From contig WRKF01000188.1 in the NCBI GenBank assembly GCA_009778165.1, forward strand, positions 61-64,060: 64,000 bases of DNA, read 5' to 3'. The position numbers and the translations under genes were made by a program. This stretch comes from Defluviitaleaceae bacterium (GTDB lineage Bacteria > Bacillota > Clostridia > Lachnospirales > UBA5962). The notes under the pieces were generated by a model. It saw nothing but the letters and a program-made list of their open reading frames with translations, had not been told where the DNA came from and ran no database searches. Positions 3,553-58,131 of this stretch are shown piece after piece. Every line of letters begins with the position of its first letter. Position 1 is the first letter of the stretch.

Positions 3553-3593
3553 GACAAAAATTAGGAAGTCAGACCAAGAACAATCTGACTTCC
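3553..3593 (-). terminator. Rho-independent terminator closing the long minus-strand operon
   Basis: Perfect 10-bp stem GGAAGTCAGA / TCTGACTTCC (3564-3573 / 3584-3593) followed on the minus strand by TAATTTTTGT. Confidence 0.7.
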
Positions 3594-3614: not shown

Positions 3615-4484
3615 CTAAACGATAGTACCCTCGTTATTTAGCGGGCTAAACCCTGCCCCCAACACTTCTGTTGCAGAAGTAACAATAATAAAGGCTTGGG
3701 GATCTACCTCTTTTACTATTTCCTTTGCCTTAACCAATTCTTTTTGGCTCATTATACAGAGGAGCATATCTCGGGATTGCCCTGTATACACTCCTTTCGC
3801 AGGGATAGATGTAATACCCCTGGATATGTTCGTCAAAAGAACCTTACTTATTTCTTCAGACTTGGCAGATAATATAAACGCCGCCTTTGCAGACTGCACA
3901 CCGGAAATAACAACATCTGTAACCTTTACCGTAATAAAGATAGACACTACTGCATACATGGTGTTGATTGCCCCAAACATCAACATACCGCTCATTATAA
4001 CAACAAAATCCATGGTGAAGAGTATGCTTGTAAGTTTTACGTGCTTTAAATATCTGTGTATGATTGCCGCCAAAAGCGTGGAGCCGCCGCTTGTCGCTCC
4101 CTGGCGCAACATCATTGCCACACTGAGTCCTACCATAACTCCCCCAAACACAGCACTAAGCGTCAAATCAGGGTAAATGGAGGGAATGTGTTGGGCAAAA
4201 GAAAGAGCCACAGTAACTGCCCCAATCGCATACACACTTTTCATAAAAACATCTCTACCTATAATTCTAAACCCCATAAACAAAATCGGCAAGTTTAAAC
4301 TTATATTTGTAACCCACAGGGGAATAGTGAACGGCAAATGAGCTTCACTCAAGTTTAAAAAAATGATTGATAACCCACTTACCCCACCCGTTACTATCCC
4401 ATGATGAACATAAAAAATTTGTAGCCCAACAGCAAATATAATCGCTGCTAACGTTATTTCCAGGTATTCTCTAAATTTTTTCAT
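3615..4484 (-). CDS. YitT family membrane protein (polytopic domain plus C-terminal DUF2179-like domain)
   Basis: 289-aa ORF with GIVTGGVSGLSII, several TM helices, and a soluble C-terminal domain (KELVKAKEIVKEVDPQAFIIVTSATEVLGAGF). It starts 10 nt after the tagA-like stop. Confidence 0.8.
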   Translation of the reverse strand: MKKFREYLEITLAAIIFAVGLQIFYVHHGIVTGGVSGLSIIFLNLSEAHLPFTIPLWVTNISLNLPILFMGFRIIGRDVFMKSVYAIGAVTVALSFAQHIPSIYPDLTLSAVFGGVMVGLSVAMMLRQGATSGGSTLLAAIIHRYLKHVKLTSILFTMDFVVIMSGMLMFGAINTMYAVVSIFITVKVTDVVISGVQSAKAAFILSAKSEEISKVLLTNISRGITSIPAKGVYTGQSRDMLLCIMSQKELVKAKEIVKEVDPQAFIIVTSATEVLGAGFSPLNNEGTIV

Positions 4485-4494
4485 TTGATTTGTC

Positions 4495-5226
4495 CTATTC
4501 TTTTCTCTTTTTTGAAATTTTTTCAGTAACTACTCTAAAAACAAACTTTGGCAATGCACCCATGCGCACAATACGCTTGGGGTCAGTGGCAAGCCTGTAA
4601 AACCACTCCAGGTTAAGAGATACAAAAGCTCGTGGGGCACGTTTTACAACTCCTGCCATAACATCTATTGCACCACCAACACCTACGGAAATCTTCACAG
4701 GAAACCCTTTATTTTTTTGCATCCATTTTTCTTGCTTTGGCGCTCCCAACCCCACAAGCAGGACATGAGGTTCAAGTCGTTCTATTTCCTGTATTATAAC
4801 TTTTTCTTGGGTAATATCAAAATAGCCGCTGTGAAAGCCTATCACTGCTATATTTTTGTATTTAGCCTCTATTTTTTCTTTTGCCATTTTGGCTACACCA
4901 TCTTTTGCACCCAATATGTATACTGTAGTGCCGGCAGGGGCTAACTCAAAAAAAGAAAGCATTAAATCTATACCGGCAACTCGCTGCGACAGCTTGGGTT
5001 TCATAATATAAGATGCAAGCACTAACCCAATCCCATCAGGCACTACCAAATCCGCCTGTTTTATTATATCTGCCAGCTCTTTGTCTTTTTGGGCTTTCAT
5101 CACTATTTCCGGGTTGGGGGTTATCACAATATTGTTTTTATCTCCCTGCAAAAAAGCAAGAAGTTTTTTCACAGCATTTTCCAATGTTATGTTTTCTATT
5201 GGTATGTCTAAAATATAAGTTTTCAT
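4495..5226 (-). CDS. WecB/TagA/CpsF family glycosyltransferase (N-acetylmannosaminyltransferase-like)
   Basis: ILDIPIENITLENAV..., NIVITPNPEIVMKA, DLVVPDGIGLVLAS, GAPKQEKWM. ATG 5226 overlaps the upstream stop as TAATG. An alternative GTG start lies at 5262. Confidence 0.82.
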   Translation of the reverse strand: MKTYILDIPIENITLENAVKKLLAFLQGDKNNIVITPNPEIVMKAQKDKELADIIKQADLVVPDGIGLVLASYIMKPKLSQRVAGIDLMLSFFELAPAGTTVYILGAKDGVAKMAKEKIEAKYKNIAVIGFHSGYFDITQEKVIIQEIERLEPHVLLVGLGAPKQEKWMQKNKGFPVKISVGVGGAIDVMAGVVKRAPRAFVSLNLEWFYRLATDPKRIVRMGALPKFVFRVVTEKISKKRKE

Positions 5227-5840
5227 TAGCGTATTTCGTAGGAACCCCTTATTATAAACCACGCACCGGCAGAGGTTACTATAACCCCCCTTCCGTCGTT
5301 GCGAGGCACTATTAGCACATTGTTTATTGGTACAAAATCTCCATTAAACAGTTCTGTGCCTGCGGTAACGTTTATAATACCGTCATACACTTCTGTAAAT
5401 GATATTGCAGAACCGCCACGCAATATTATTTCTGTGCCTTCACCACCGATAAGCATATGCCCCCCCGGCACATATACCGGAGTGTATCTCTCTACACTCG
5501 GCTCCGGAATCGGTGCCGGTGCGGGAGGAGGAGCAGGAGCAGGAGCCTGCCATGAGCCTGCCATGCCCCCTGTTTGGCCCAGGTTTTCCAAAACAGTTCT
5601 CGATATATCTTGTATTAGAAAATTCAGCATTTCGTCACTAATGCCTGCTGCTTGCTGACCATGAGCCGCCAAACGCTGCTCCAAATAGCTACGAGAGATA
5701 AGCGGATCACCTTCTGTACCCGGCTGGTTCGCTATTATTGTAAATGCCGGCACAAGTGCGATTACAAAAAGCACAACAAAAATCTTGGTTTTCATACTTT
5801 TTATACTTTTAACACTTTTTATACTTTTGCAAATTTTCAT
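5226..5840 (-). CDS. Hypothetical signal-anchored protein with a Pro/Ala linker and a beta-rich C-terminal domain
   Basis: 204-aa ORF with a basic KSIKSVKSIKS N-terminus, hydrophobic segment IFVVLFVIALVPAFTII, linker APAPAPPPAPAPIPEP, and a Gly/beta-rich C-terminus. I recognise no family. Confidence 0.55.
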   Translation of the reverse strand: MKICKSIKSVKSIKSMKTKIFVVLFVIALVPAFTIIANQPGTEGDPLISRSYLEQRLAAHGQQAAGISDEMLNFLIQDISRTVLENLGQTGGMAGSWQAPAPAPPPAPAPIPEPSVERYTPVYVPGGHMLIGGEGTEIILRGGSAISFTEVYDGIINVTAGTELFNGDFVPINNVLIVPRNDGRGVIVTSAGAWFIIRGSYEIR

Positions 5841-5841
5841 G

Positions 5842-7263
5842 CTAGTCCTCCTCTATTCTATATTCTTTTGAAAACCCCGTTGAGGGGAAAAGCTCCCCAA
5901 AACCCATATCAACCACCTTTACATTAAAATAGTTGCCTGTGTATACAATGGAAATATTTAACCGTGTTGTAAGGGGAGGGGTGTGTATAGGGTCTATGTT
6001 TAAAGTCTGTGCAAGACTCACATCTCCTGCGGGGCTACGTTTTACTATATCTATTGTAAAAGGTTTTCTTGTGTCGTCTGCTACAATCACGGTGCAGTTA
6101 TAGGAACGCCCTGGGGAAAAGTTTTCACGTTCTATTATCGGCACAAAAACATCTGTTTTCCCTTGCTTTACATTTACGCCTATATCGTGATAAAGTTGGG
6201 TAAAACCTTCAATCGTTATTTCCTTAGCTATATCTTTTGGTATAAAACCCAGCTTTTTTGCCCCAATAATAGTGGCTCCCATTGCACTCATTGCCCCCTT
6301 ATGCTTTACCACATTAGCATCGGGAAAAAGCTCATCTACCACACCTTTGCTCCAAGACATTTCAAAACCGCCCCCGACTAAAAGAACAGTGTCTATATCA
6401 GAAATATCCACACCCTGCTTATCGAAGAAATTTTTTAAAAATTCCATCATTGTACGGCGAAGCGGGCTTATCATTTCTTTTACGTTAGCTTCTGCCACTT
6501 TGCATGTTACGGGAGGAAAACAAAAGTTCATGTATAGCTTTGTCGATTTTTGCCTTAAAAAAACCTGATCTTTATGCTCCTGCACAAAATTTTTAATGTT
6601 TATCATATCTTCCTTTTTAAGATAAGACGCATTTTGTGCTTTTACAAAAATACTTGCAAAATATTCTTCTAACGATGCCTCCAGTAAATAGGTAGCAACT
6701 TTTGCCTCTTCAGTTCGGCTTTCTTGCTTTATTTCTTTCCCTATTGTGTACAGCCCTGCCCGCAAGCCCCTTGCACCATAGTCAAGCAAAAGAAGTTTTT
6801 CGTTTTGCGGTTTTTTTGTAAAATAGTGGTATTCAAAGATACATTTGCTGTGCGGAACAAAAAAAGTAATACTTTTGTATTTATCAAAAGCAATTTTGAA
6901 ATTTTTGGTTTCGCCACCGGTTTGACTCACAACGATAGCAGCCAACTGAGCCCTTGGATTTATACTCAAAATATTTCTTAAAAACTCATCCACATATCTT
7001 ATCCAATGTTCCGGTTTGGTGGCACTTGAAAAAAGCCGACACAAAACAGGGTTGCTTTGGCTTTGATTTTGCAGTGCATAGTCGCCAAAAACCCATTCTT
7101 TTGTTTCTTTTATAAATTGGAGTGCTGTGGCCATCGTTGTTTTGCCGTAACCTCCGCTTATATCCAACGTTTGCGGAGCCATTTTTTTTGTGTCAAAATA
7201 AGCTAAAGAGCTGGTCGCATCTCCAATATCTATCCCTAAAATAAATTGGTTCTCTTTTAACAT
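5842..7263 (-). CDS. Divergent Hsp70/actin-fold ATPase paralog with a degenerate phosphate-2 motif and an SBD-beta-like C-terminus
   Basis: ILGIDIGDATSSLAYF (phosphate-1-like), LLLDYGARGLRAGLY (degenerate DxGGGTFD), VLLVGGGFEMSWSKGVVDELF (adenosine motif). The C-terminal beta region is HDIGVNV...FVPIIERENFSP...NVKVVDMG, and the protein ends ...EYRIEED. Confidence 0.7.
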   Translation of the reverse strand: MLKENQFILGIDIGDATSSLAYFDTKKMAPQTLDISGGYGKTTMATALQFIKETKEWVFGDYALQNQSQSNPVLCRLFSSATKPEHWIRYVDEFLRNILSINPRAQLAAIVVSQTGGETKNFKIAFDKYKSITFFVPHSKCIFEYHYFTKKPQNEKLLLLDYGARGLRAGLYTIGKEIKQESRTEEAKVATYLLEASLEEYFASIFVKAQNASYLKKEDMINIKNFVQEHKDQVFLRQKSTKLYMNFCFPPVTCKVAEANVKEMISPLRRTMMEFLKNFFDKQGVDISDIDTVLLVGGGFEMSWSKGVVDELFPDANVVKHKGAMSAMGATIIGAKKLGFIPKDIAKEITIEGFTQLYHDIGVNVKQGKTDVFVPIIERENFSPGRSYNCTVIVADDTRKPFTIDIVKRSPAGDVSLAQTLNIDPIHTPPLTTRLNISIVYTGNYFNVKVVDMGFGELFPSTGFSKEYRIEED

Positions 7264-7269
7264 GTCATT

Positions 7270-8208
7270 TTATCTCGCAACTACTACACTCGCTCTAATT
7301 ATCACTACTCCACTTTGATGGTAACCTTGGTTCGATACCTTTATTATTTCCCCTTTTTTAAACCCCTCTTGGCTTTGGGTCATTATTACCTCGTGTTCTC
7401 TGCCGTTAAATGTAGTGTGTGGCGGCGGATTTATAGGGCGTATACCATAATTAATCAAAGTTGTGTTTATCATACTATTTGCTTCTTCCACAACTTGTAT
7501 ATACATTAGCACATCCATTTCCGTGCTTTCTTTCAGCCTGGCTATACTGTAGTTTAGTAGGTCGTTAAACGTTGTTATTTCAAACAATAGCCTATCTTTT
7601 TTGTATGCCATCTCTTTTTTGTTTAATGTCTGCATATGGCTATTTACAGACTTTGCAACCTTTTGTTGTATTTTGGGATCATTTTGAAGCTCCACAAAAA
7701 ATTCTTCCGCAAGCTGTAAATTTATATCTTTTATATTATCCCATTGCTCCAATGCAAAATCTTGTATATTAAGAGTTTGGGGATTATATGTCATTTCCTC
7801 TGTTTCTTCCAAAAAACTTTGCAACGCATCTTTTATATTTTCAATTTTTATGACTAATGTTTCAGATATAGCCTTTATTATTTGGTGTTCTTCCTGATGG
7901 TCGATTAGGGTTTCTTCATATTCTCTACAATATTCTATAATGCTTATAAAGGTATCTATTACCACATTTGTCAAATATTTCATTACCTTGCATTTGCTGT
8001 AAAGGGTTTCAGAATAGCCTTTAACCGGCTCCCAGCTTCGTATGCTAAAATAAAGTATGTCGTCAAAAATCTTCACAAAAGTTTCCAGTTGTTGGTCATA
8101 GGCTTCTTTTGTTAGGGGTTCAATACTTGCCTTTAGCGGAGCATATGCGGCAAGGGCTGTCAAAAAGTTTGGCTGTGGCATATGAATCTCCTTGTTAGTA
8201 TAACTCAT
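7270..8208 (-). CDS. GrpE-like nucleotide exchange factor with an extended helical N-terminus
   Basis: The last ~60 aa (YGIRPINPPPHTTFNGREHEVIMTQSQEGFKKGEIIKVSNQGYHQSGVVIIRASVVVAR) align by eye with the GrpE C-terminal beta-domain (F-P/N-x-H-x-A/V ... KGY-x-x-x-G-x-x-I/L-R-x-A/S-x-V-x-V). It overlaps the Hsp70 gene by 14 nt. Confidence 0.65.
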   Translation of the reverse strand: MSYTNKEIHMPQPNFLTALAAYAPLKASIEPLTKEAYDQQLETFVKIFDDILYFSIRSWEPVKGYSETLYSKCKVMKYLTNVVIDTFISIIEYCREYEETLIDHQEEHQIIKAISETLVIKIENIKDALQSFLEETEEMTYNPQTLNIQDFALEQWDNIKDINLQLAEEFFVELQNDPKIQQKVAKSVNSHMQTLNKKEMAYKKDRLLFEITTFNDLLNYSIARLKESTEMDVLMYIQVVEEANSMINTTLINYGIRPINPPPHTTFNGREHEVIMTQSQEGFKKGEIIKVSNQGYHQSGVVIIRASVVVAR

Positions 8209-9844
8209 CTACTAAAAGCTCTGTTTCAACACCTTGGCTTTCAGATACCGCTCTCACTTTTAGCATATTATCTTGCCCCACAGTAAACATTACTTTCACT
8301 TTTTCGGTTCCTTTTGGGGCTTTTGGTATACCTTGCAATGTAGTTCCCGCAAGGCGTTTCATGCCATTCCTGTTTATGGATTTATCTTCTGTTGGGGATG
8401 TATCCTCATACACAACGATTGCCATACTTGTTACATCGTCAAAGTTTGTGGGGAACTCTTCTGTAGATTCTATCGTTAGCCCCGTGCTGGGAATTTCTAT
8501 CCCTGCCCCAACTATTTCAAAAAACTTGCGCCCGGCTATTTCCAAACCAAGGGGGTGCAGGGTTTTTTCTTTTATTTTCGGCCCCGTTGCGGTTGGAGAC
8601 AAAATCAAATTGGCATACGTTGCCGCCCCAAGAGATATGCTTAGTGCAGGGGATATTTTTGAACGGTGAGGCTCTTTTCCAAACTTTTCTAATATTTTTT
8701 GGCTAACCAGTGTTATGGAAGAAGAACCGCCAACCAAAAATATTTCATCTACTTGAGATATTCCGGCAGAATTAACACAATTATCTATACATTGTATAGT
8801 AATATCCAAAATATCCCGCAAGTTTTTGCCTTTATACCTTTCAAAATCTTGCGTAGCATCCCCCAGTTGATTTATACGACGGTGATTCTCAAACTCCTCT
8901 CTTGTTATCTCCATATTTATGTTTACTATTCTCGGTTCCTGCAAAAACGGAGTAAGGGTTATCTTTGTAGACTTAGCAAAGGAAAGCCTTTCTTTTGCTT
9001 GCCTGCTAACCTGCTCAAGCCTTGCCACCGCCATCTTTTTTTGGCGATAAATATGGGGGGATTCATCTTCTGCAAAAAGGTCGATTTCTCCTTTCGTTTG
9101 CTTTTTGAACTCTTCGTAAACCATGTCCATTATAAACTTATCTATATCATCTCCTCCCAAATCGTTATCTCCGTATGTGCTAAGGATAGATATAATAGGC
9201 TCTGCTCCCTCTGTTGCTTCTATGTTAATTACACAAGCATCAAAAGTACCGCCGCCAAAGTCGTACACAAGCAAGTTTTTGTTTGCGTCTTCCCCAAGGG
9301 CATATGTTATGGCAGCAGCAGCAGGCTCTAACCGCAAAAAAGTTTTATTTGTGTCAAATCCGGCTAAAATAGCCGCATCTTTCGTCATTTTTCGCTGTTT
9401 GTCAGTAGAATTTGCGGGAACGGTTATAACGCAGCCGGTAAACTCGCAAGGAGTGAGCAACTCTTCTTCCAAATATTCTTGAGCTTTTTCTCGTAAATAG
9501 GATAAAATCTCCGCTGCTATCTCCTCCGGGGTAAAATTGTGGTGTATATCGTCTACCAAAATACTTATCTTTTTGCCGGAACCCAGTCGGCGCTTTATGC
9601 TAAGCACAGTGCTTTCCGGATAAATCGCCGCAGCTTCTTTCGCTTGCACCCCAAAAACTTTTGCCAATTTGTTTTCTTCTTCCAAATCCGGCTCAAACAT
9701 AATGGCGGTGGGGAAAATGTTGCTGCCATCTATTGGTATGATTTGCGGCTCATCATCTATGTATACACTAACGACGCAGTTGGTTGTACCAAAGTCTATT
9801 CCCAAAACTAACTCTTGGTGTTGCTCTAAAGATATTTTTCCCAT
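8195..9844 (-). CDS. Hsp70 family chaperone, short form (NBD plus SBD-beta, no helical lid)
   Basis: GIDFGTTNCVVSV, LVYDFGGGTFDACV, IFLVGGSSSITLV, and SBD-beta signature LQGIPKAPKGTEKVKVMFTVGQDNMLKVRA. The 549-aa protein ends ~20 aa after the beta domain (...ELLVDELY). Confidence 0.9.
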   Translation of the reverse strand: MGKISLEQHQELVLGIDFGTTNCVVSVYIDDEPQIIPIDGSNIFPTAIMFEPDLEEENKLAKVFGVQAKEAAAIYPESTVLSIKRRLGSGKKISILVDDIHHNFTPEEIAAEILSYLREKAQEYLEEELLTPCEFTGCVITVPANSTDKQRKMTKDAAILAGFDTNKTFLRLEPAAAAITYALGEDANKNLLVYDFGGGTFDACVINIEATEGAEPIISILSTYGDNDLGGDDIDKFIMDMVYEEFKKQTKGEIDLFAEDESPHIYRQKKMAVARLEQVSRQAKERLSFAKSTKITLTPFLQEPRIVNINMEITREEFENHRRINQLGDATQDFERYKGKNLRDILDITIQCIDNCVNSAGISQVDEIFLVGGSSSITLVSQKILEKFGKEPHRSKISPALSISLGAATYANLILSPTATGPKIKEKTLHPLGLEIAGRKFFEIVGAGIEIPSTGLTIESTEEFPTNFDDVTSMAIVVYEDTSPTEDKSINRNGMKRLAGTTLQGIPKAPKGTEKVKVMFTVGQDNMLKVRAVSESQGVETELLVDELY

Positions 9845-9906
9845 TTTTTTGCCCCTTTTTGTATTTTTATGCTTTTATTTTGTGTTTTAGTATCATAATG
9901 TTTTAG

Positions 9907-9938
9907 TATCATAGTATCATAGTATCATAGTATCACAA
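9907..9938. repeat. 8-nt microsatellite (TATCATAG)x3 plus a degenerate fourth unit
   Basis: TATCATAG occurs at 9907, 9915 and 9923, then TATCACAA overlaps the stop codon of the 892-aa gene. It is preceded by a 15-nt direct repeat GTTTTAGTATCATA(A/G) at 9885 and 9900. Confidence 0.85.
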
Positions 9939-12611
9939 CAACTTAAACTTTACAGCTTCCTTTGGTCGATACATGCCATATAGCAGTTTCTCCATTTCAT
10001 CGTGCTTAAACATCTCAAAATAGATTAGTGCATTATTTATTGCAAAAAATTCATTTGCCGGGTTTAGCTCAAAATTATCGTCAAGGGGCTTTAAATCTAC
10101 CCTTTCGTTTTTGTATAACATAGTCTCGCTTTTTTTTTCTTTATCCTCAAAGTAGTATGACACTTTCTCGTTGTAAAAAATAGGGAAGCTAGTGGTATAT
10201 ATACCAAATTTAAAGTAATTCATTTGTGTTTTTGTATATTTTTTTTCACCACCTGTTTTTGTGTGTATATTTGTATGTATATATATTTTTTTTCCTGCAT
10301 CTGCTGTGTATGATATACAATAGAGTCCTTGCTGCATATCTGTTAAATGTTCCCTTGCACGCTCCATAAATATTGGCAAAAACATGTTGCTAAGCTCTAA
10401 ATTTTTCATTGCCTCTTTTAAAATTTTTTCGCCCTCTTCCTCTTTACTATTTATCGCCAATATTGCTAAAGCTATAATCAAAACTATATCTTCTTTTTTT
10501 CCGTATATTTCTTTAAGAACATCTATCACATTTTGTGGTAAATCTATTTCTTCTACTATAGTCTTGTAGCACAAATAGTATACAAAATCATCTACAACAT
10601 TGCTGTTTTGCAAATGCGAAGAGGAGTAGGCTCGCAAAAACACCTGTAGCACATCTAAAGAAATATGACGCATATAAATCGCCGCATTTAAAACTTTTTC
10701 ATCTAACCGGGAATTGCTGATTTGATGCTCGTTTAAAACGTCGCTAAGTTTGCACCACTCATGTATGGAACCTTTGTAATAGTCCAATACTGTCTTTAAA
10801 AATGTTTCGCTATAATAACCTTTTATCAGCAATTCATATATAGTGCCGGATATTAACGGCCGTATATCAACCTTAAATATCGGTTTGTATTTTTTAGGGT
10901 TTTCTTGGGCTTGCAACAAGGTTTCTATGCTTTCGCACAATACTGTTTCCGTAATATTTCGCGAGTTGCCTTGTATGAGTTTTATGACTTGTTGATATTC
11001 GTTGTTAGCCATAAATACCTTAAACATGGTCTCTATATGTCGTGGCTCAAGATTCCCCGGGTCAATTTCTTTGTAATATTCCAGTGCCCTTTCTATATGA
11101 TTAAGTTTAAAAAGGACGTTGCCGAGGGTTTGAGCTATTTGCATACGGAAATGGTTGGACAAACCCGCTGTTTTCATTGCTCGTCTTAATATAATTGTGC
11201 ATTCCTCTGTTTGCGCACCTTCGTGTATATAATGGTCGGCGATAGCTGTTAAAAGCCCCGTTCCGGTGTGTCCCTTTTTGTAAAGATAGTTATATAGCCA
11301 AAAATCCTCTTGCACTTGTTCTTGTAATTTGGGTTCTTCGTCTATTATACTTTTTTTGCTTTGATCCAGGCACAATATTCTAAAGTGTTTAGATGTTATC
11401 CGTACCAACGCTTCGCCCCTACCACTGCTCCAGTCCAACTGATAAGATGTTGGCTCTGCTCTGGTTTGCTCGCTTATCCATACATGAGCCACTTTGGGGT
11501 TTGTTGTTGTTAGTTTATGTAAAAAAAGTGAGCTTGCGATACTTGATTCCATTACGTTAACAGCTTTGCCGGATATTTTGCTTTTGTCCTTGTTGTTTTC
11601 CAGTGTGTAACGGAACAGTGTGTTGTAATATCTCTGATCCTTTGAAGAAATGTCCGTAGAGGCTCCGTGTAATGCTAATGCAACAATATCTTCACTCATG
11701 TTGTAAGTATCTACTAAATCTCTCAAATGAGGTAAAGTTAAAAGTATGTGAAACACAAAGGGTCGTATATCTATTGGCACCGGGGTAGCTCGGTTCATAA
11801 AATTTTCCACAGAAAAACGGCATATATCCTCTTTTTTGTTTATGTATGCACTATATATTAGAGCATTGTTAAACTCTTGCTCATATATTTGCTTGGCGGA
11901 CAGTTTATTGTAAAACTCATATGCCATTGAGCTATAATCGCCTTTGCTTAGCAATACTTTACATATTTCCAACAAAAGCCAGTCAGAGGTATCGTTATCC
12001 ACCTTTTCATATATTTCCATAAAGAGAAAAATATTGTCCCATATCTCTTCTGTTATTAACCGTTCATTTGCTTGCAACATTTCTGCGGTTAGCAGATTGT
12101 GAGCGTTTGCCCATTTCAAAAACGCAAGCAACAAGGCACTTTTGTAATATCTGCGCCCTTTTTTGAAAATTTTGTAAAAACAAAGATATAAAAATGGGCT
12201 ACGACAACCAGCCGTAAAGGCTTTGTCTAAGTAAGTATAGGCTATGCTAGGCTCGTTGTCTATATACATATAGCAGATATACTGGCTATAATCCTTTTTG
12301 AAAGCTAAGATTGCATCTTTAGATTTTTCGGCAACGCTTGAGTCCAATAAACCCAACAAAAAATTATAAAAGGCATAGGATTCCCCACCTTTATAAAAAT
12401 TGGCATATGGTTTAAAGGATGCCAGGATATCTTCAGCTACAGATGTATTACCTTTTTCTATTTCGAGTAATGCGGTATACAGATATAACCCCGTGTGAGC
12501 AGGGTGCTTTCTCGAAATATCTTTGGCTGCACTGTATGCTTTATCTAAACAGGCTTTATCGCCTAAAATGTATTGTATGTAATACTTGTGTATATCTATA
12601 ACCATTCGCAT
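9933..12611 (-). CDS. Large (892 aa) all-helical repeat protein, TPR-like by eye
   Basis: Long uninterrupted ORF rich in Y/L/A/K/E amphipathic segments (for example ALEYYKEIDPGNLEPRHIETMFKVFMANNEYQQVIKL), with no enzymatic motif. The last ~150 aa look beta-rich. The start overlaps the upstream stop as TAATG. Confidence 0.65.
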   Translation of the reverse strand: MRMVIDIHKYYIQYILGDKACLDKAYSAAKDISRKHPAHTGLYLYTALLEIEKGNTSVAEDILASFKPYANFYKGGESYAFYNFLLGLLDSSVAEKSKDAILAFKKDYSQYICYMYIDNEPSIAYTYLDKAFTAGCRSPFLYLCFYKIFKKGRRYYKSALLLAFLKWANAHNLLTAEMLQANERLITEEIWDNIFLFMEIYEKVDNDTSDWLLLEICKVLLSKGDYSSMAYEFYNKLSAKQIYEQEFNNALIYSAYINKKEDICRFSVENFMNRATPVPIDIRPFVFHILLTLPHLRDLVDTYNMSEDIVALALHGASTDISSKDQRYYNTLFRYTLENNKDKSKISGKAVNVMESSIASSLFLHKLTTTNPKVAHVWISEQTRAEPTSYQLDWSSGRGEALVRITSKHFRILCLDQSKKSIIDEEPKLQEQVQEDFWLYNYLYKKGHTGTGLLTAIADHYIHEGAQTEECTIILRRAMKTAGLSNHFRMQIAQTLGNVLFKLNHIERALEYYKEIDPGNLEPRHIETMFKVFMANNEYQQVIKLIQGNSRNITETVLCESIETLLQAQENPKKYKPIFKVDIRPLISGTIYELLIKGYYSETFLKTVLDYYKGSIHEWCKLSDVLNEHQISNSRLDEKVLNAAIYMRHISLDVLQVFLRAYSSSHLQNSNVVDDFVYYLCYKTIVEEIDLPQNVIDVLKEIYGKKEDIVLIIALAILAINSKEEEGEKILKEAMKNLELSNMFLPIFMERAREHLTDMQQGLYCISYTADAGKKIYIHTNIHTKTGGEKKYTKTQMNYFKFGIYTTSFPIFYNEKVSYYFEDKEKKSETMLYKNERVDLKPLDDNFELNPANEFFAINNALIYFEMFKHDEMEKLLYGMYRPKEAVKFKLL

Positions 12612-13801
12612 TACTTAAAGTCTCCCACCAGCAATTCTATATCTTGGAAGAATTTTTTGTCCCGATAATGGGATTTTACCCTTATAAAAGACTGAAAAAC
12701 AGGTTGCTTTCGTATGCTTTTTTGAGCCGTTTGCAACGTTGATAACCTTAAACCAAAGGGTATGGCTTCTTCTGTTTTTATTATATAAAGATTTTTGTCA
12801 AATTTTACAAAATTATCCCTTGGTGCTATTTCTATTCTAAGGGGTTCCTTTGTGTTATTTTTAATGTAAAGGAACAGATCATCTTTTATCCCCGCATAAT
12901 TCTTGTTTAATCTTATATCCACAAGGTTCAGCACCTGAGCTTTTATCTGCACTTCGCCCGTACCGGTTTCCAATGAAATTGTCCCGTATTGCACTCGTTT
13001 ATTTATCAATTTTCTATCTATCTCATAATCAATCTCTATTTCGTTGCTTTGTTTAAAATCTGCTGTTGTAACACTGCTTTTACGGAAAATAACCCAAGGA
13101 ACGTTACATTTCAGCGTTTCGTCAGTAAAGCCCTCGCCATGTCGTCGCACCCTAACTTTCCCTGTACAGGGTTCTATCTTAAATGGGTCAAGTGCCATTT
13201 GTATCTTTTCCTCATATAACGACGTTGTTGTGGGATTTTTTAGTTTATTTAGCACAAAAAAGTTATTTATACCCCTTTCTTTGTTTACATCATTTCTAAA
13301 TTGCTCATAAATATCTATATATTCATAATTGATGGTGTGTAACCATAGATAAAAATCATGTTTCATAAATATTTTTTTTGCAAAAGAAGGGTTTTGCACC
13401 CACAACTTGTAAAAGCTATCCATATCGTTAATGGAAAAACCCTCTGTAAAAAGAACGGGAGGCAGTACATTTATTATGAATTTTATTGTATGCTCGCCGC
13501 CGTTAGAAGCAATGGTGACATTTGTACAAATCTCTTTTGGGGCGTTGAGTGGAAGGTTAAGACTGTATCGTGTTTCTATGTTGTTGCCGTTAAAATGGGG
13601 TACATCAAAAACAACGGTGCTATTAGAATATATGCTCCCTTTTAAAGTGCCTGCACCAATATTTTCTATTATAATTTTACCTACACGCTCCTCTGTAGGA
13701 GAAGATTGTAGGTTGATTGTAGTTTCCCGCTGTTCAGATACTCCGTTGTGATTAACGGAAATAATGGGCAACTCGTTTTCAAAATAGTCCAATACATTCA
13801 T
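12611..13801 (-). CDS. Hypothetical 396-aa protein, beta-rich ends with a helical middle; first gene of the operon
   Basis: Uninterrupted ORF directly behind a near-consensus promoter and translationally coupled to the next gene. I recognise no motif. Confidence 0.6.
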   Translation of the reverse strand: MNVLDYFENELPIISVNHNGVSEQRETTINLQSSPTEERVGKIIIENIGAGTLKGSIYSNSTVVFDVPHFNGNNIETRYSLNLPLNAPKEICTNVTIASNGGEHTIKFIINVLPPVLFTEGFSINDMDSFYKLWVQNPSFAKKIFMKHDFYLWLHTINYEYIDIYEQFRNDVNKERGINNFFVLNKLKNPTTTSLYEEKIQMALDPFKIEPCTGKVRVRRHGEGFTDETLKCNVPWVIFRKSSVTTADFKQSNEIEIDYEIDRKLINKRVQYGTISLETGTGEVQIKAQVLNLVDIRLNKNYAGIKDDLFLYIKNNTKEPLRIEIAPRDNFVKFDKNLYIIKTEEAIPFGLRLSTLQTAQKSIRKQPVFQSFIRVKSHYRDKKFFQDIELLVGDFK

Positions 13802-13849
13802 AAACCTAACCTATTTTGTGATAAATACTCGTTGTTATACATACATACT

Positions 13850-13879
13850 ATTATACTACTATTTCATATTTTTTTGCAA
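13850..13879 (-). promoter_or_regulatory. Sigma-A type promoter of the Hsp70-cluster operon
   Basis: On the minus strand: TTGCAA (13879-13874), an 18-nt spacer, then TATAAT (13855-13850), about 50 nt upstream of ATG 13801. Confidence 0.6.
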
Positions 13880-13992
13880 GCACAAGCACAGAAAATTTCC
13901 GTGCATTTGTAAAGGTGCAACGAAAAAGTTCGAGAGTTTCAATTCGGTTTCAATTTGGTCTCGATTCTAAAAAAGTTAAACGCTACATTTCT

Positions 13993-14193
13993 CTCTTGTT
14001 TTGTCCATGCCAGCTGTTGTATAATGTTTTTATATTTCTCGGCACAAAAAAATTGCCTGATTTTTATTATTTTCTACTATTTTTTATTATAACAAGGCAT
14101 ACCTTAAATCAAAAATTCTACACTCACACATAGAGTCAGCTATAGAGTCAGCCATAGAGTCACACATCGAGTCTTCGTTAGTTCGCATTAGAA
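13993..14193 (-). repeat. Dispersed repeat family X, copy 2 (inverted relative to copy 1)
   Basis: The minus strand reads TTCTAATGCGAACTAACGAAGACTCGATGTGTGACTCTATGGCTGACTCTATAGCTGACTCTATGTGTGAG...[~55-nt AT-rich insertion]...AATTTTTTTGTGCCGAGAAATATAAAAACATTATACAACAGCTGGCATGGACAAAACAAGAG. It carries three tandem GACTCTATRGCT-like units. Confidence 0.8.
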
Positions 14194-14589
14194 AAGCCTC
14201 TCTAAAGGTGATTTTTAAAGGCTCAGCTAAGATTTTTCGCCATTCTAACCCTTGATCCAAAATCTTAGAAACGGGGAAAATGAAACACGGAATCGCTATA
14301 ATTTAAACCCAAATTCAAACTTAGAAATCAACTTTTCGGATTATAATTTTCGGCTTATAATTAATAAGGAAAAAATGCCGAACCCAAAAATCCTGTTTGT
14401 GGTATGCATCATTAACGATATTACGCAAAAACCGAAAAATATGTTGTGTAATATTATGCATTATTTTTTGCGACATTAATTCTCGAAAAATAATTTGTGT
14501 CAATGTGTATAATTTCGGATATATTGTTTCACAATACGTTGACATAAATAACAAAATTATATCGTTTTTCTTTTATGCATTATAATTAC

Positions 14590-14630
14590 AAAAAAGAAAA
14601 GGGGGGCGTGTTTACAACAAACACACCCCT
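14590..14630 (-). terminator. Rho-independent terminator of fliW-csrA
   Basis: The minus strand has GGGGTGTGTTTG-TTGT-AAACACGCCCC followed by CCTTTTCTTTTTTG, about 30 nt downstream of the csrA stop. Confidence 0.75.
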
Positions 14631-14661
14631 TCACATTAACACAAAATAAGTCTGTTTTAGC

Positions 14662-15801: not shown

Positions 15802-15887
15802 GGAGAGGTGTCCGAGTGGTTTAAGGAACTGGTCTTGAAAACCAGCGACTCCGAAAGGGGCCGTGGGTTCGAATCCCACCCTCTCCG
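15802..15887 (+). tRNA. tRNA-Ser (anticodon TGA)
   Basis: GGAGAGG acceptor pairs with CCTCTCC. The anticodon loop is CTTGAAA, with a long variable arm and T-arm GGGTTCGAATCCC. No CCA is encoded. Confidence 0.9.
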
Positions 15888-15913
15888 GTATGTAGCGGCC
15901 GAGTAGCCCATGT

Positions 15914-16001
15914 GGAGAAATACCCAAGTGGTTGAAGGGGCTCGCCTGGAAAGCGGGTAGGTCGTTAACCCGGCGCGAGGGTTCAAATCCCTCTTTCTCC
16001 G
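15914..16001 (+). tRNA. tRNA-Ser (anticodon GGA)
   Basis: GGAGAAA / TTTCTCC acceptor, anticodon loop CTGGAAA, long variable arm, T-arm GGGTTCAAATCCC. Confidence 0.9.
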
Positions 16002-16048
16002 CTTTATAGTTTTTTGGCAACACTTTTCAGAAACATGCAAATTTGTTT

Positions 16049-16121
16049 GGGGATGTAGCTCAGCTGGGAGAGCACCTGCCTTGCACGCAGGGGGTCACGA
16101 GTTCGAATCTCGTCATCTCCA
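16049..16121 (+). tRNA. tRNA-Ala (anticodon TGC)
   Basis: GGGGATGTAGCTCAGCTGGGAGAGC..., G3:U70 pair, anticodon loop CTTGCAC; 73 nt. Confidence 0.92.
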
Positions 16122-16272
16122 CTGTTTACTTTTGTTATTAGGTTTTGTAGCGGTTTTGTATTTGTAGGTTTTGTATTTTTATTATTACGGCTTTGTTTTG
16201 CCGCAGATTTTGTTGATAGGGATTTTTGGGGGCTGGTCACAACTTGCAGTTGTTGCTCGCCGATGCGTCCGG

Positions 16273-16346
16273 GGGCTGGTAGCTCAGCTGGTTAGAGCAC
16301 ACGCCTGATAAGCGTGAGGTCGGTGGTTCGAGTCCACTTCAGCCCA
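16273..16346 (+). tRNA. tRNA-Ile (anticodon GAT)
   Basis: GGGCTGGTAGCTCAGCTGGTTAGAGC..., anticodon loop CTGATAA; 74 nt. Confidence 0.9.
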
Positions 16347-16363
16347 GACAATGGCTTGCACAT

Positions 16364-16436
16364 GGGGGTATAGCTCAGTTGGGAGAGCGCTTGACTGGCA
16401 GTCAAGAGGTCAGGAGTTCAAGTCTCCTTATCTCCA
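16364..16436 (+). tRNA. tRNA-Ala (anticodon GGC)
   Basis: GGGGGTATAGCTCAGTTGGGAGAGC..., G3:U70 pair, anticodon loop CTGGCAG; 73 nt. Confidence 0.88.
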
Positions 16437-16485
16437 GCCTTTTTTGGCAACAGATTTGGTAATTTCGCAATATATTTACTGTTTT

Positions 16486-16560
16486 CGGGGTGTAGCGTAG
16501 CTTGGCTAGCGCGCCTGATTTGGGTTCAGGAGGTCGGAGGTTCGAATCCTCTCACCCCGG
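16486..16560 (+). tRNA. tRNA-Pro (anticodon TGG)
   Basis: CGGGGTG / CACCCCG acceptor, anticodon loop TTTGGGT, T-arm GGAGGTTCGAATCCTC. Confidence 0.88.
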
Positions 16561-16647
16561 CTATTGAAGAGTATATTGGGGCTTTTTCTAATAATCCACA
16601 ATATACTCTTGGTTCTATTTTGTGATATTCCCCAAACCCTAGTTCGA

Positions 16648-16721
<74 letters not shown>

Positions 16722-16853
16722 TTTGTAGGGTGGGGGTTCTATAGAACTGTTGCGAAATTGGTTGCGAAATTGTTGTAATTGTTGTAAATGTATAAAGAAT
16801 ATGAAATCGAAATTTTGGTGGTGGCAGGGATTTTGCCTAAAAACGCTAATCAT

Positions 16854-16926
16854 GGTGAGTGTAGTTCAGTGGTAGAGCGCCAGATTGTGGTTCTGGTTGT
16901 CGCGGGTTCAAATCCCGTCACTCACC
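16854..16926 (+). tRNA. tRNA-His (anticodon GTG)
   Basis: Extra G-1 followed by GTGAGTG / CACTCAC acceptor, discriminator C, anticodon loop TTGTGGT. Confidence 0.9.
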
Positions 16927-16951
16927 CTTTCGCAAATATTTTTTGCTATTT

Positions 16952-17024
16952 GGGTCACTAGCTCAGTCGGCAGAGCATCAGACTTTTAATCTGGTTGTCC
17001 CGGGTTCGACCCCCGGGTGACTCA
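16952..17024 (+). tRNA. tRNA-Lys (anticodon TTT)
   Basis: GGGTCAC / GTGACTC acceptor, anticodon loop CTTTTAA, T-arm CGGGTTCGACCCCCG. Confidence 0.9.
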
Positions 17025-56213: not shown

Positions 56214-56255
56214 GCCATTCAACTTAAAAATCTCATATTTTTTAAGTTGAATGGC
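56214..56255. repeat. Hairpin repeat family D, copy 3 (17-bp stem)
   Basis: GCCATTCAACTTAAAAA-TCTCATAT-TTTTTAAGTTGAATGGC followed by TATAAC, between the tkt stop and the lepA start. Confidence 0.75.
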
Positions 56256-56289
56256 TATAACATTCCTTAGTTACGGAGCGTTTTATTTT

Positions 56290-58131
56290 ATGGATACAAA
56301 AGATACAAAAAAAGAAGCAAACAAAGAAGCAAACCGACAAATACGCAATTTTTCTATTATAGCTCATATAGACCATGGTAAAAGCACTCTCGCAGACCGC
56401 CTAATAGAAAAAAGCGGCTTGCTAACCCAAAGAGAGATGCAAAGCCAGGTGCTAGATAACATGGATATAGAGCGGGAGCGGGGTATCACAATAAAAGCCC
56501 AAGCTGTACGCCTTATATATAAAGCCCAAGATGGGCAGGAATATATACTTAACCTAATAGATACCCCCGGCCACGTGGACTTCAACTACGAGGTGAGCCG
56601 TAGCCTTGCCGCTTGCGAGGGAGCAATATTGGTGGTAGATGCTGCCCAGGGGATAGAGGCACAAACTCTTGCCAATGTGTATTTGGCTATTGACAACAAT
56701 TTAGAGATACTGCCGGTTATAAACAAAATTGATTTGCCCAGTGCTAACCCCCAAGGGGTTATAGAAGAAATAGAAGATATTATTGGCATCCCTGCACAAG
56801 AGGCTCCCCTTATATCTGCCAAGGCTGATATTAACATAGCACAAGTGTTTGAAGGGGTAATCGCCAACATACCACCGCCAATGGGTAGCACAGCTAATCC
56901 ATTAAAGGCGCTTATTTTCGACTGTTTTTACGACACTTACAAAGGTGTTATTGTTTTTATTAGAATTGTGGATGGAATAATAAAAAAGGGTACAAAAGTT
57001 TTGTTTATGGCAACGAACAAATCTTTTGAGGTACTGGAGGTTGGTTTTTTTGGACCGGGGCGTTTTGTGAACACAGAGGAGCTAAAAGCCGGAGATGTTG
57101 GTTACATAACAGCCAGTATAAAAGATGTGCGTTACACCAAAATTGGAGATACAATAACATATGCGGATATCCCTTGTGCAGATCCATTGCCCGGCTATAA
57201 AACTGTAAACTCCATGGTTTTTTGCGGCGTTTTTCCCGCCGACCGAAACGATTATCAAAATCTGCGAGATGCTTTGGACAAGCTCCACCTAAACGATGCC
57301 GCACTACAGTTTGAGCCGGAAAGCAGTGTAGCCTTGGGTTTTGGGTTTAGATGTGGATTTCTTGGGCTACTCCATTTGGAGATAGTGCAGGAGCGACTGG
57401 AAAGAGAATATAATCTGAACCTTGTTACCACTGCCCCTTCTGTTATATATAATATTTATAAAACAGATGGCACAATGGTTGCCATATCCAACCCGGCGGA
57501 TATGCCCGAAGTTACTCAAATACAAAAAATAGAAGAGCCCATGGTTAGAGCTTTAGTAATGCTGCCACCGGAATATATTGGTTCAGTAATGGAACTTTGT
57601 CAAGAGCGGCGCGGGGAATATGTAAGCATGGAATATACCGGCACAAACCGTGCCACGCTTATATACAATATGCCTCTAAATGAAATTATTTACGATTTTT
57701 TTGATGTATTAAAATCTCGCAGCAAGGGCTATGCATCATTTGATTATGAGCTAACAAACTATCAGGAGTCGGAGCTTGTAAAGTTAGATATTTTGGTAAA
57801 CAAAGAGGTGGTAGATGCGTTAAGTTTTATCGTTCACAAGTCTAGTGCTTATGAGCGAGGGCGAAAAATTTGCGAAAAGCTAAAAAAGGAAATTTCCCGT
57901 CACCAGTTTGAAATACCGATACAAGCAGGGATTGGCGGCAAAATAATTGCCAGGACAACAGTGAGTGCACTGCGAAAGGACGTTCTCTCTAAATGTTATG
58001 GTGGTGATATAACCCGTAAAAAGAAGTTGTTAGAGAAACAAAAAGAAGGGAAAAAACGGATGCGTAACATAGGAAATGTGGAAGTTCCCCAAAGTGCTTT
58101 TATGAGTGTGCTGAAGTTAGAAGAGGAGTAG
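56290..58131 (+). CDS. lepA: Translation elongation factor 4 (LepA)
   Basis: [37 protein letters not shown], and the LepA C-terminal domain. I chose ATG 56290; the ORF track starts at 56251 inside the upstream hairpin. Confidence 0.94.

Follow-up and report, generated by a model that had tools for sequence, protein, structure and literature searches.

A conserved five-gene module of gut Clostridia encoding DUF5717 proteins, a predicted lid-less Hsp70, a GrpE-like factor and a degenerate Hsp70 paralogue

The window (the whole 64-kb stretch of DNA that was analysed) carries a conserved five-gene module of gut Clostridia (genes A to E; Table 1) that has no characterised counterpart. On balance, we think it probable that the five genes form a dedicated accessory Hsp70 machine, built around a DUF5717 scaffold and vertically maintained in this group. 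A first-pass annotation had described the locus as a self-contained chaperone-like system of six genes; its view of an accessory, specialised Hsp70 module stood, while the gene count, the supposed unknowns and the analogy to HscC did not. The six minus-strand open reading frames were all found exactly where they had been placed, and junction measurements bore out the tight spacing reported for them (TAATG, overlaps, or gaps of at most 88 nt). Genes A and B share a TAATG at 12611, B and C are 88 nt apart, C runs 14 nt into D (a 13-nt gap results instead if the gene-caller start of the 303-aa form of D is used), and the spacing is 6 nt between D and E and 1 nt between E and F.

Table 1 Features of the locus in window coordinates.
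Feature	Coordinates	Strand	Length	Matches and remarks
Candidate sigma-70-type promoter	13850..13879	-		TTGCAA-18-TATAAT; 10/12 match; 48 nt upstream of gene A ATG
csrA terminator	14629-14603			
Gene A	12611..13801	-	396 aa	Pfam DUF5717_N 7.7e-34, profile positions 24-288 of 875
Gene B	9933..12611	-	892 aa	Pfam DUF5717_N 5e-23; DUF5717 (C-terminal) 3.4e-34
Gene C	8195..9844	-	549 aa	Pfam HSP70 4.3e-75, profile positions 1-496 of 599
Gene D	7270..8208	-	312 aa (303 aa from alternative start)	Pfam GrpE 6.5e-13
Gene E	5842..7263	-	473 aa	Pfam DUF5716_C 2e-16; weak HSP70 3.5e-7
Gene F	5226..5840	-	204 aa	Membrane-anchored; PAPAPPPAPAP linker
tagA/wecG-family glycosyltransferase	4495..5226	-	243 aa from ATG at 5226	Pfam Glyco_tran_WecG 9e-57
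yitT-family membrane protein (DUF2179)	3615..4484	-		Pfam YitT_membrane 2.6e-49 and DUF2179; last gene of the unit
Terminator-like hairpin	3564..3593	-		13-bp stem and T-run, 22 nt past yitT stop

The transcription unit was not bounded at 5226, as had been proposed, and runs on through tagA and yitT. The stop codon of gene F overlaps the tagA ATG (TAATG), tagA is translationally coupled to gene F, and yitT starts 10 nt beyond tagA. The hairpin at 3593-3564 is the first terminator-like hairpin downstream and closes a unit of eight genes (A-F, tagA, yitT); three weaker same-strand hairpins with stems of 5-7 bp (12217-12199, 12213-12197, 8547-8530) lie inside its genes. At the other end, the near-consensus promoter previously noted is present in the gap of 858 nt beyond the csrA terminator, but it is indistinguishable from chance, as promoter-like sites are no commoner in the region than in shuffled sequence (44 observed vs 44.2 expected), and it is plausible as a promoter by its position only.

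A gene-neighbourhood search for co-occurrence beyond this genome found the block again as one unit, in the order DUF5717_N, DUF5717, Hsp70, GrpE-like and DUF5716, at about 25 independent loci, which belong to MAGs of Defluviitaleaceae and other Clostridia (order A-B-C-D-E seen in L006, L008, L011-L016, L018, L019, L024 and L027, and also in L031, L033-L035, L038 and L044). Most loci have a longer, eight-gene form of the module, to which an Hsp70-vWA fusion, a TPR protein and a second Hsp70-like gene are added; the version in the window is a reduced one. Up to four Hsp70-fold paralogues were found in one operon. Two loci (L002/L003) have kept A, B and E and lost C and D, so that the scaffold and the putative pseudo-Hsp70 (gene E, see below) can persist without the dedicated motor (gene C). 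Across loci, the identity of A, B, D and E is 28-46%, compared to 60-67% for C in most of them; the motor evolves slowly and the scaffold fast. The neighbours of the module are mostly housekeeping genes, its distribution is confined to related Clostridia, and no copies were found on viral contigs or plasmids. Other accessory partners seen in relatives are a TerY-like vWA protein with a PP2C, and an AbiH neighbour.

Gene C is predicted to encode a catalytically competent lid-less Hsp70. Because the HSP70 profile was covered only in part, the protein was assigned an NBD and an SBD-beta and no lid, and its alignment to solved DnaK structures stops at DnaK residue ~500, which confirmed the earlier description of an Hsp70 ending after the SBD-beta. 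The hydrophobic interdomain linker of DnaK (LLLD) is replaced by K/V-x-E-K-T throughout the gene C family; since the lid is missing as well, an altered allostery is plausible. The C-terminus ends in a conserved VD(E/D)LY. All ATPase motifs are intact, the SBD-beta is canonical and there is no other dnaK within the 64-kb window, as would be expected if C and D were simply the DnaK and GrpE of the organism in a rearranged or degenerate housekeeping locus. We regard this as very improbable. Gene C shares 49-67% identity with its orthologues in other loci (60-67% in most) but only 30-35% with canonical Clostridial DnaK, and C and D both remain far under the NCBIfam equivalog cut-offs (250 bits vs 648 for DnaK in the case of C, 27 vs 152 for GrpE in the case of D). 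The lid, hrcA and dnaJ are all absent from the locus, as noted before, and there is no CIRCE element in the 64-kb window. Among module-bearing relatives, L020 also encodes a canonical hrcA-grpE-dnaK operon, at a distance of 5 kb from the module copy, and L002 does without C and D altogether. The recurrence of the block, the low identity to DnaK, the missed cut-offs and the lack of CIRCE thus support the earlier reading of an accessory Hsp70 module distinct from the housekeeping DnaK.

The product of gene D is probably the private GrpE-type nucleotide-exchange factor of gene C. Its GrpE identity had been proposed from the C-terminal ~60 aa and holds; the match is more extensive, as the whole GrpE core is found at residues 167-311 (profile positions 23-164 of 165; 49 bits vs a cut-off of 25.8). 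A variable helical N-terminal extension precedes this core, and the orthologues vary in length between 161 and 654 aa, with only the C-terminal ~200 aa in common. Gene E, in turn, appears to encode a lid-less Hsp70 paralogue without the residues needed for ATP hydrolysis, i.e. a pseudo-ATPase. Its Pfam matches and the family alignment confirmed a second Hsp70-fold protein with a degenerate motif, and a profile of the family matched solved Hsp70 structures across both the NBD and the SBD-beta (2e-26). Among 13 aligned family members, the position of DnaK Lys70 is never Lys (Leu in gene E), TTN is lost, and the NEP glutamate is kept in none at the aligned position; in most members GGGTFD has become G-x-R-x-L/I-R (GARGLRAG in the window protein).

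Genes A and B had been listed as unknowns, but they are no orphans: a profile search placed both in Pfam DUF families, and in DUF families only (Table 1). They are the two halves of one split protein family, DUF5717, and are fused into a single protein in P0046 and P0117. The AlphaFold2 model of gene A (pLDDT 85.4) shows a helical insert and three beta-sandwiches of an Ig-like (ASH/PapD-type) fold, with the best Foldseek matches to ASH/hydin-type domains of the ciliary central pair, CEP192 SPD-2 and TRAPPII; no TM segment was detected, and the product is predicted to be cytoplasmic. Gene B is not all-helical, as had been assumed. Its model (pLDDT 92.6) consists of a TPR-like alpha-solenoid (1-361), a beta-sandwich (364-431), a second solenoid (437-761), a beta domain (763-834) and a conserved terminal helical hairpin (851-881), with conservation peaking at residues 797-874. 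Foldseek returned only generic TPR scaffolds for gene B (TM-score at most about 0.3), and only 294 cluster representatives among 1.84 billion proteins matched it. In the searchable literature no paper was found to mention DUF5717, and the sole mention of DUF5716 was in an unrelated cancer-informatics paper.

The absence of an HPD motif or J-domain from the six proteins was borne out by Pfam and by an HPD tripeptide scan, neither of which gave a match to any window protein. Likewise, no J-domain was found in loci L001-L024 with a DnaJ J-domain query or in the precomputed Pfam tables of the full loci L008, L011 and L027, and the gene B profile showed no J-like signal (hhalign probability 0.1%). 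The description of the system as self-contained and free of a J-protein holds for the locus only: gene C could be served by the housekeeping DnaJ from another place in the genome, and the missing J gene is no proof of J-independence. E. coli HscC, suggested as the nearest analogy, is a weak one, with 28% identity to gene C and no closer to it than DnaK. HscC relies on J-proteins and operates without a GrpE (PMC8215388). The published account that comes closest concerns DO-GTPase systems and their Hsp70-GrpE theme, composed of Hsp70, GrpE, a second Hsp70 and a repeat/TPR protein (Kaur et al. 2020; PMC7159879), from which the module differs in that no GTPase is present. That no system of such composition has been characterised, as previously stated, remains correct, although this closer description exists.

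In the accessory Hsp70 machine that we favour, gene C would alternate between ATP and ADP states and be reset by gene D. The A/B scaffold, possibly together with E, would do the usual job of a J-protein, recruiting gene C to a single, specific partner or client and triggering or gating its ATPase; a candidate site on B is the most conserved patch, formed by the C-terminal beta domain and the helical hairpin. Gene E could be a non-hydrolysing partner of C, similar to Ssz1 in the ribosome-associated complex or Hsp110 with Hsp70. The output would be the assembly, disassembly or switching of a scaffold-centred complex and not general protein folding. If this view holds, the module may be an Hsp70 machine that is started in an unusual way. 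A slow motor and a fast scaffold, together with the accessory vWA, TPR and PP2C proteins and extra Hsp70s elsewhere, fit a regulated sensor or switch such as Kaur et al. (2020; PMC7159879) put forward for NTP-dependent conflict systems. By this analogy, a role of that kind is the most likely one, although no recognisable effector and no PADLOC or PHROG match was found for it. The lack of viral or plasmid copies, the mostly housekeeping neighbours and the narrow distribution also speak against a conflict role.

An alternative explanation is that the actin-fold proteins C and E (with E' and the vWA fusion elsewhere) are not chaperones and polymerise on the A/B scaffold into an intracellular structure, e.g. 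in Clostridia that are large or that differentiate, relatives of Epulopiscium for instance. One homologue does come from an Epulopiscium MAG, several Hsp70-fold paralogues can share an operon, and for the related systems Kaur et al. suggested "complexes akin to cytoskeletal structures" (PMC7159879). Gene E also has a weak ParM-like PHROG match (1e-4), and C, E' and the vWA fusion protein have MreB-family Pfam matches; however, these are the generic actin-fold signal given by every Hsp70. Moreover, C and E each keep an SBD-beta, a domain that to our knowledge is found in no actin-like filament protein, and a dedicated GrpE argues for a chaperone-type nucleotide cycle. We consider polymerisation distinctly improbable.

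Gene F, for which Pfam, NCBIfam, PHROG and PDB gave no match, has a TM segment at about residues 20-38 and no homologue in the other annotated module loci, so that the conserved unit comprises five genes and not six as first described. Its sole homologue (L044; 38% identity) lies directly upstream of tagA. From this gene order, gene F probably belongs with the downstream tagA unit and not with the Hsp70 module, the two being merely co-transcribed here. The tagA product matches NCBIfam TarA at 2e-65, under the family cut-off. Together with F, TagA and YitT, the module could conceivably chaperone or regulate those steps in the synthesis of wall teichoic acid or a secondary cell-wall polymer that take place in the cytoplasm, which we judge unlikely. 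The tagA-yitT pair directly follows gene E in L002/L003 and L027, with overlapping or near-overlapping junctions, and does so in the window with gene F alone intervening; in L044, a distance of 3.7 kb separates F and tagA from the module. However, the L044 pair is on the strand opposite to the module, with mnmA, iscS and abiH in between, membrane segments are absent from A-E, and neither tagA nor yitT occurs within 10 kb in any eight-gene locus. In L006 the module is followed by leucyl-tRNA synthetase. Gene F, tagA and yitT are more probably a separate cell-wall-related unit, co-transcribed with the module by chance in this lineage: the tagA-linked loci are the closer relatives of the window, and shared gene-order ancestry is therefore as good an explanation of the pattern as function.

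Genes A to E, which encode the two halves of a DUF5717 scaffold (A and B), a lid-less Hsp70 (C), a GrpE-like protein (D) and a DUF5716 pseudo-Hsp70 (E), are inherited together, and no J-protein accompanies them. The loci of relatives were collected from the contexts of HMMER hits and from pattern scans of GTDB genomes and JGI metagenomes (seeded with an 8-sequence alignment sharing INNALIY), and all were annotated by phmmer. All six minus-strand ORFs of the first-pass annotation were found in place, and the neighbourhood comparison gave one consistent picture across loci, in which A-B-C-D-E recurs as a unit outside the genome of the window. The six-gene unit originally proposed stands for these five genes but not for the membrane-anchored F, which is not part of the conserved block.

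Positions of the six genes, their flanking features and the related loci, with the identity of the relatives' proteins to those of the window
Feature	Sequence or loci	Position	Strand	Length	Identity to window protein
A	window	12611-13801	minus	396 aa	30-45%
B	window	9933-12611	minus	892 aa	28-38%
C	window	8195-9844	minus	549 aa	60-67% (49% in the most distant locus, L011)
D	window	7270-8208	minus	312 aa	30-46% (only the C-terminal ~200 aa align)
E	window	5842-7263	minus	473 aa	31-39%
F	window	5226-5840	minus	204 aa	
Promoter-like match TTGCAA-18-TATAAT	window	13879-13850			
Terminator-like hairpin beyond yitT	window	3593-3564			
Strong terminator-like hairpin after csrA	window	14629-14603			
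AT-rich gap between csrA and operon	window	13802-14660		858 nt	
Tandem repeat, 12-nt unit x3.8	window	14129-14173			
Nine tRNA genes	window	15802-17024	plus		
Type III glutamine synthetase gene	window	17200-19284			
lepA	window	56251-58131			
Five-gene form A-B-C-D-E	window, L006, L015, L027, L038/L044				
Eight-gene form (most loci)	L008, L011-L014, L016, L018, L019, L024, L031, L033-L035				
Genes added in the eight-gene form, example	L013	17751-21460			
Reduced form A-B-E-tagA-yitT, no C or D	L002/L003	5860-12542			
Variant form, vWA, PP2C and DUF6273 genes directly upstream of A-B	L025 (position), L026	5984-9781	same as A-B		
AbiH-family gene upstream of module	L044	7659-8690	divergent		
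F homologue	L044	4565-5149	opposite A-E		38%
Zinc-ribbon Ser/Thr kinase	L030	2523-3956			

The module occurs in several forms. In the eight-gene form, A-E are followed by a second Hsp70-like gene (E'), in which the Lys70 equivalent is the only catalytic residue lost (Tyr instead), by an Hsp70-vWA fusion (~690 aa) whose ATPase motifs are intact, and by a TPR protein of ~380 aa. A variant form carries a TerY-like vWA, a PP2C phosphatase and a DUF6273 gene. None of these vWA, PP2C, DUF6273, TPR, second Hsp70-like or Hsp70-vWA genes was found elsewhere in the 64-kb window. The variant loci also hold the closest full-length relative of B (41% identity), and IS1 transposase fragments lie just before their vWA-PP2C-DUF6273 genes. 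With neither Hsp70 nor GrpE in the reduced form, a dedicated motor is evidently dispensable for retention of the scaffold and the pseudo-Hsp70. An AbiH-family abortive-infection gene immediately upstream of the module in L044 was the sole defence gene seen beside any copy. The identities in the table indicate that the motor C is under much stronger constraint than its partners; in L011 the identities of A, B, D and E are lower still (22-32%). The hosts are uncultured or poorly studied gut Clostridia, with Defluviitaleaceae, Eubacteriales, Clostridiales and Epulopiscium MAGs as named sources; several were assembled from a limited number of JGI and ENA metagenomes, one record is a roe-deer rumen sample, and the isolate names presumably denote termite-gut MAG sets. 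No module copies were found on viral contigs or plasmids.

The reading of C as a lid-less Hsp70 with intact ATPase motifs was borne out by Pfam, structure alignment and motif table alike. C matched the Pfam HSP70 profile (4.3e-75) over positions 1-496 of 599, and its alignment to solved DnaK structures stopped at about DnaK residue 500, leaving the nucleotide-binding domain (NBD) and SBD-beta present and the lid missing. C retains every catalytic motif (DxGTTN, the equivalents of Lys70 and Glu171, DFGGGTFD and GGSS), and as far as its residues can show, it is a catalytically active Hsp70. Its interdomain linker reads KIKEKT in place of the hydrophobic LLLD of DnaK; that the hydrophobic linker and the lid are both missing would fit altered allosteric control of C. 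The C orthologues all end right after SBD-beta with a conserved VD(E/D)LY. We considered the C-terminal VDELY as an EEVD-like TPR-docking tail, but in the alignment it falls on the first turn of helix A of the DnaK lid, and its role may be no more than to cap the beta domain; we keep the docking role as an idea only.

The HscC analogy of the first-pass annotation proved weak, since C is no closer to E. coli HscC (28% identity, 134 bits) than to canonical Clostridial DnaK (30-35%; 30% and 197 bits in the pairwise comparison). HscC (556 aa) shares with C the character of a short, specialised Hsp70, and its neighbourhood includes the Sel1/TPR-type protein YbeT. However, HscC keeps a shortened lid, works with the dedicated J-proteins DjlB/DjlC and is thought not to use GrpE (PMC8215388), whereas the module has no lid, a dedicated GrpE and no J-protein. 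The absence of a J-domain from the six proteins was confirmed, with neither a PF00226 hit nor an HPD tripeptide. A phmmer search with the E. coli DnaJ J-domain found nothing among the ORFs of loci L001-L024, and hhalign gave the B profile a probability of 0.1% against the J-domain. A cryptic J-domain in the terminal hairpin of B was rejected: a Y/H-D/E loop is present but profile similarity is absent. No characterised Hsp70, HscA and HscC included, is known to be started other than by a J-domain protein.

D proved GrpE-like as proposed, scoring above the Pfam gathering score (PF01025; 49.1 versus 25.8 bits), but the match is not confined to the C-terminal ~60 aa: residues 167-311 align with profile positions 23-164 of 165, spanning the GrpE long helix, four-helix bundle and beta domain. 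Because the NCBIfam GrpE equivalog cut-off was missed (27 versus 152 bits) although the Pfam score was reached, D is a divergent member of the family. Its family profile had no hit in the PDB, and the single-protein PDB search gave nothing better than a mitochondrial GrpE at an E-value of 0.99. Orthologues of D range from 161 to 654 aa, their length varying via the N-terminal extension. Two starts are possible for D in the window: that of the longest ORF (312 aa) gives a 14-nt overlap with the Hsp70 stop, while the public gene call of 303 aa begins 13 nt after that stop.

That C and D are the housekeeping DnaK system in rearranged form is very unlikely. No further Hsp70 or dnaK was found within the 64-kb window, MreB-type actin-fold hits apart; a housekeeping chaperone operon, if in the genome, lies outside the window. 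Against the housekeeping reading stand the low identity of C to DnaK, its score of 250 bits against the NCBIfam DnaK equivalog (NF001413; cut-off 648 bits), the lack of a CIRCE element in the whole window even when 3 mismatches were allowed, and a relative's locus (L020) with a canonical hrcA (355 aa)-grpE (178 aa)-dnaK (624 aa) operon at a distance of 5 kb from the module. Pfam searches of the operon gave no hit for HrcA or DnaJ. The accessory, non-housekeeping role first suggested is upheld by the missed DnaK cut-off, the window without CIRCE and the separate canonical operon in L020. Behind lepA lie, among others, genes for an SNF-family sodium symporter and for a phosphate acetyl/butyryl transferase, but no hrcA-grpE-dnaK-dnaJ.

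E had been described as a degenerate second Hsp70-fold protein, and both Pfam and the family profile agreed. It matched DUF5716_C (PF18980; 2e-16, 60 bits) with an additional weak HSP70 match, and its 17-sequence family profile aligned with solved Hsp70s at 2e-26, through both NBD and SBD-beta. The Lys70 position is Leu in the window protein and never Lys in aligned family members, TTN is lost, GGGTFD has become G-x-R-x-L/I-R-G/A-G in most members, and the NEP glutamate is kept by no member at the aligned position. Because the catalytic residues are lost in every aligned family member, we take E, on its sequence, to be a pseudo-ATPase.

A and B are not the orphan unknowns for which they had been taken, as Pfam places both in the DUF5717 family. 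A matched DUF5717_N (7.7e-34, 117 bits) over the first 290 profile positions, and B the end of DUF5717_N (81 bits) and the DUF5717 C-terminal family (3.4e-34, 119 bits; PF18984 and PF18983); the gathering scores of 25, 25 and 34.7 bits for DUF5717_N, DUF5717 and DUF5716_C were all exceeded. A, B and E are thus members of DUF families by Pfam, and NCBI already calls window proteins 'DUF5717 family protein'. The two are halves of one family, fused in the relatives' proteins P0046 and P0117 (1190 and 1302 aa); the split form is commoner, most of the best 150 B matches being ~900 aa long. A word-indexed homology search gave 2 hits with the 892-aa B and 4 with a 31-sequence profile, and exhaustive HMMER was needed to recover the B family, which is small (294 cluster representatives among 1.84 billion proteins).

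Structure models were built for both halves. Although B had been called all-helical, its AlphaFold2 model (96-sequence alignment, pLDDT 92.6) shows a TPR-like solenoid (residues 1-361), a beta-sandwich (364-431), a second solenoid (437-761), a beta domain (763-834) and a terminal helical hairpin (851-881). Conservation within the family peaks in the C-terminal beta domain and the hairpin (at M797, Y799, G803, F812, E815, the invariant N859, and E874). Foldseek against the PDB returned only generic TPR scaffolds (IFT-A, Ctr9, Naa15, Ski3 and OGT; TM-score at most about 0.3) and therefore gave no functional lead. The model of A (pLDDT 85.4), for which the aligned homologues were database hits, has three beta-sandwiches and a helical insert, and its closest structures were ASH/hydin-type Ig domains of the ciliary central pair, the CEP192 SPD-2 domain and TRAPPII. 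Its first sandwich (residues 35-117) is homologous to the C-terminal domain of some zinc-ribbon Ser/Thr kinases (P0167-P0170; hhalign 96%). This kinase lead stays weak, since the single kinase contig inspected was without TerY-P or Hsp70 context.

How such a module could work may be sketched from its parts. C would run the nucleotide cycle and D would reset it, while the A/B scaffold, possibly together with E, would stand in for a J-protein by targeting and triggering C. E may act as a non-hydrolysing partner of C, in the manner of Ssz1 or Hsp110 with Hsp70, and the output would be the assembly, remodelling or switching of a scaffold-centred complex. In the ribosome-associated complex (Ssz1-Zuo1, working with Ssb) as in Hsp70-Hsp110 pairs, an active Hsp70 is teamed with a diverged paralogue that by itself leaves the chaperone ATPase cycle incomplete, and Ssz1 has a truncated substrate-binding domain. 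The likeness would be functional only: the eukaryotic pairs still need a J-domain (Zuo1 or class A/B J-proteins) and share with the module only the Hsp70 fold (for such partners see also PMC13580251). A bolder reading, which we judge clearly less likely than not, is that of a J-independent Hsp70 machine of gut Clostridia. In it the giant Ig/TPR scaffold (DUF5717) and the dead DUF5716 protein would take the place of the J-domain co-chaperone, bringing in and triggering a lid-less Hsp70 that a private GrpE resets; together they would act as an ATP-driven sensor or switch and possibly form a new GTPase-less branch of NTP-dependent conflict systems.

The closest published counterpart is the Hsp70-GrpE theme of GAP1-N2 DO-GTPase systems (Kaur, Burroughs, Iyer and Aravind, eLife 2020; PMC7159879, section 29), whose 'theme 2' brings together Hsp70, GrpE and a further Hsp70 with a repeat protein that is fused to either TPR or DnaJ. 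Theme and module both have an Hsp70 and a GrpE, plus another protein of Hsp70 fold and beta-sandwich repeats linked to TPR repeats; occurrence in Firmicutes and Actinobacteria is given for both, and the vWA and PP2C partners of related themes reappear in the extended and variant loci here. In contrast to those systems, no GTPase-family Pfam hit was obtained in the operon genes of L008, L011, L027 and the window, where every operon gene is A, B, C, D, E, E', the vWA fusion or the TPR protein; by this gene accounting GAP1 is apparently absent too. The repeat domains of the module are Ig-like/ASH/PapD-like by Foldseek and only possibly FNIII, its second Hsp70 retains an SBD-beta-like part that is missing from that of the DO-GTPase theme, and it has no J-domain fusion. 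By analogy, the conserved motor with a variable scaffold, the vWA, TPR and PP2C accessories and the one AbiH neighbour resemble conflict systems, and a conflict role is our leading guess. It is a guess rather than a finding because DO-GTPase and, apparently, GAP1 are absent, no effector is recognisable and A-E had no hit among the PADLOC-DB 2.0 defence models at E <= 0.1.

In the searched literature, no paper concerned DUF5717 and a single, unrelated cancer-informatics paper concerned DUF5716. Of the bacterial Hsp70 machines, the main review treats DnaK, HscA and HscC alone (PMC8215388), and a 2026 review describes bacterial DnaK derivatives as largely unexplored 'dark matter' (PMC13580251). 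DUF5717 and DUF5716 were already registered as families of unknown function. The module, a specialised Hsp70 system, would provide a first functional context for three Pfam DUFs and a defined example within that dark matter. Its conserved Hsp70 clade, with an intact ATPase, no lid, an odd linker, its own GrpE and no J-protein neighbour, also lends itself to testing whether an Hsp70 may be triggered otherwise. The slowly evolving motor set against a fast scaffold, with vWA, TPR and PP2C accessories, makes the module a candidate stress or immune switch of a new, regulated kind. Experimental access will probably be via heterologous reconstitution, given the uncultured or poorly studied hosts.

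The boundaries of the transcription unit differ from those first drawn. On the 5' side, fliW and csrA with their hairpin are followed by the AT-rich gap, which has no ORF of at least 80 aa and no Rfam match, and which contains other short tandem repeats besides the 12-nt unit. The promoter-like sequence reported in it does exist, matching at 10 of 12 positions and lying 48 nt before the A start, but it is plausible by position only, since such matches were as frequent in shuffled sequence (44 found versus 44.2 expected). On the 3' side, the unit does not end at 5226: the stop of F overlaps the ATG of a tagA/wecG glycosyltransferase gene (TAATG) and yitT starts 10 nt past tagA. As the first terminator-like hairpin lies only beyond yitT, a transcript of eight genes is likely.

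F has one N-terminal membrane segment and had no match in any profile or database search run, apart from a chance-level ZorF match at 0.013 (PADLOC-DB 2.0). Among the other module loci annotated by phmmer its sole homologue was in L044 (E = 6e-39), directly upstream of tagA/wecG and separated from the module by mnmA, iscS and abiH. The extracytoplasmic C-terminal beta domain and a 'DPL(I/V)SRSYLEQRL' motif are conserved between the two proteins. Because this lone homologue adjoins tagA away from the module, F appears to pair with tagA, which suggests a putative, uncharacterised F-TagA pair. Directly after E, tagA-yitT was also found in L002 and L027 and in none of the eight-gene loci; we read this as a gene order inherited among the closer relatives of the window, and a functional tie of the module to wall-polymer synthesis as a minority possibility. 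The window TagA is 46-62% identical to its relatives and YitT 52-60%. Farther upstream, the nine tRNA genes, the only matches of the Rfam search being tRNAs, lie between fliW-csrA and the type III glutamine synthetase gene.
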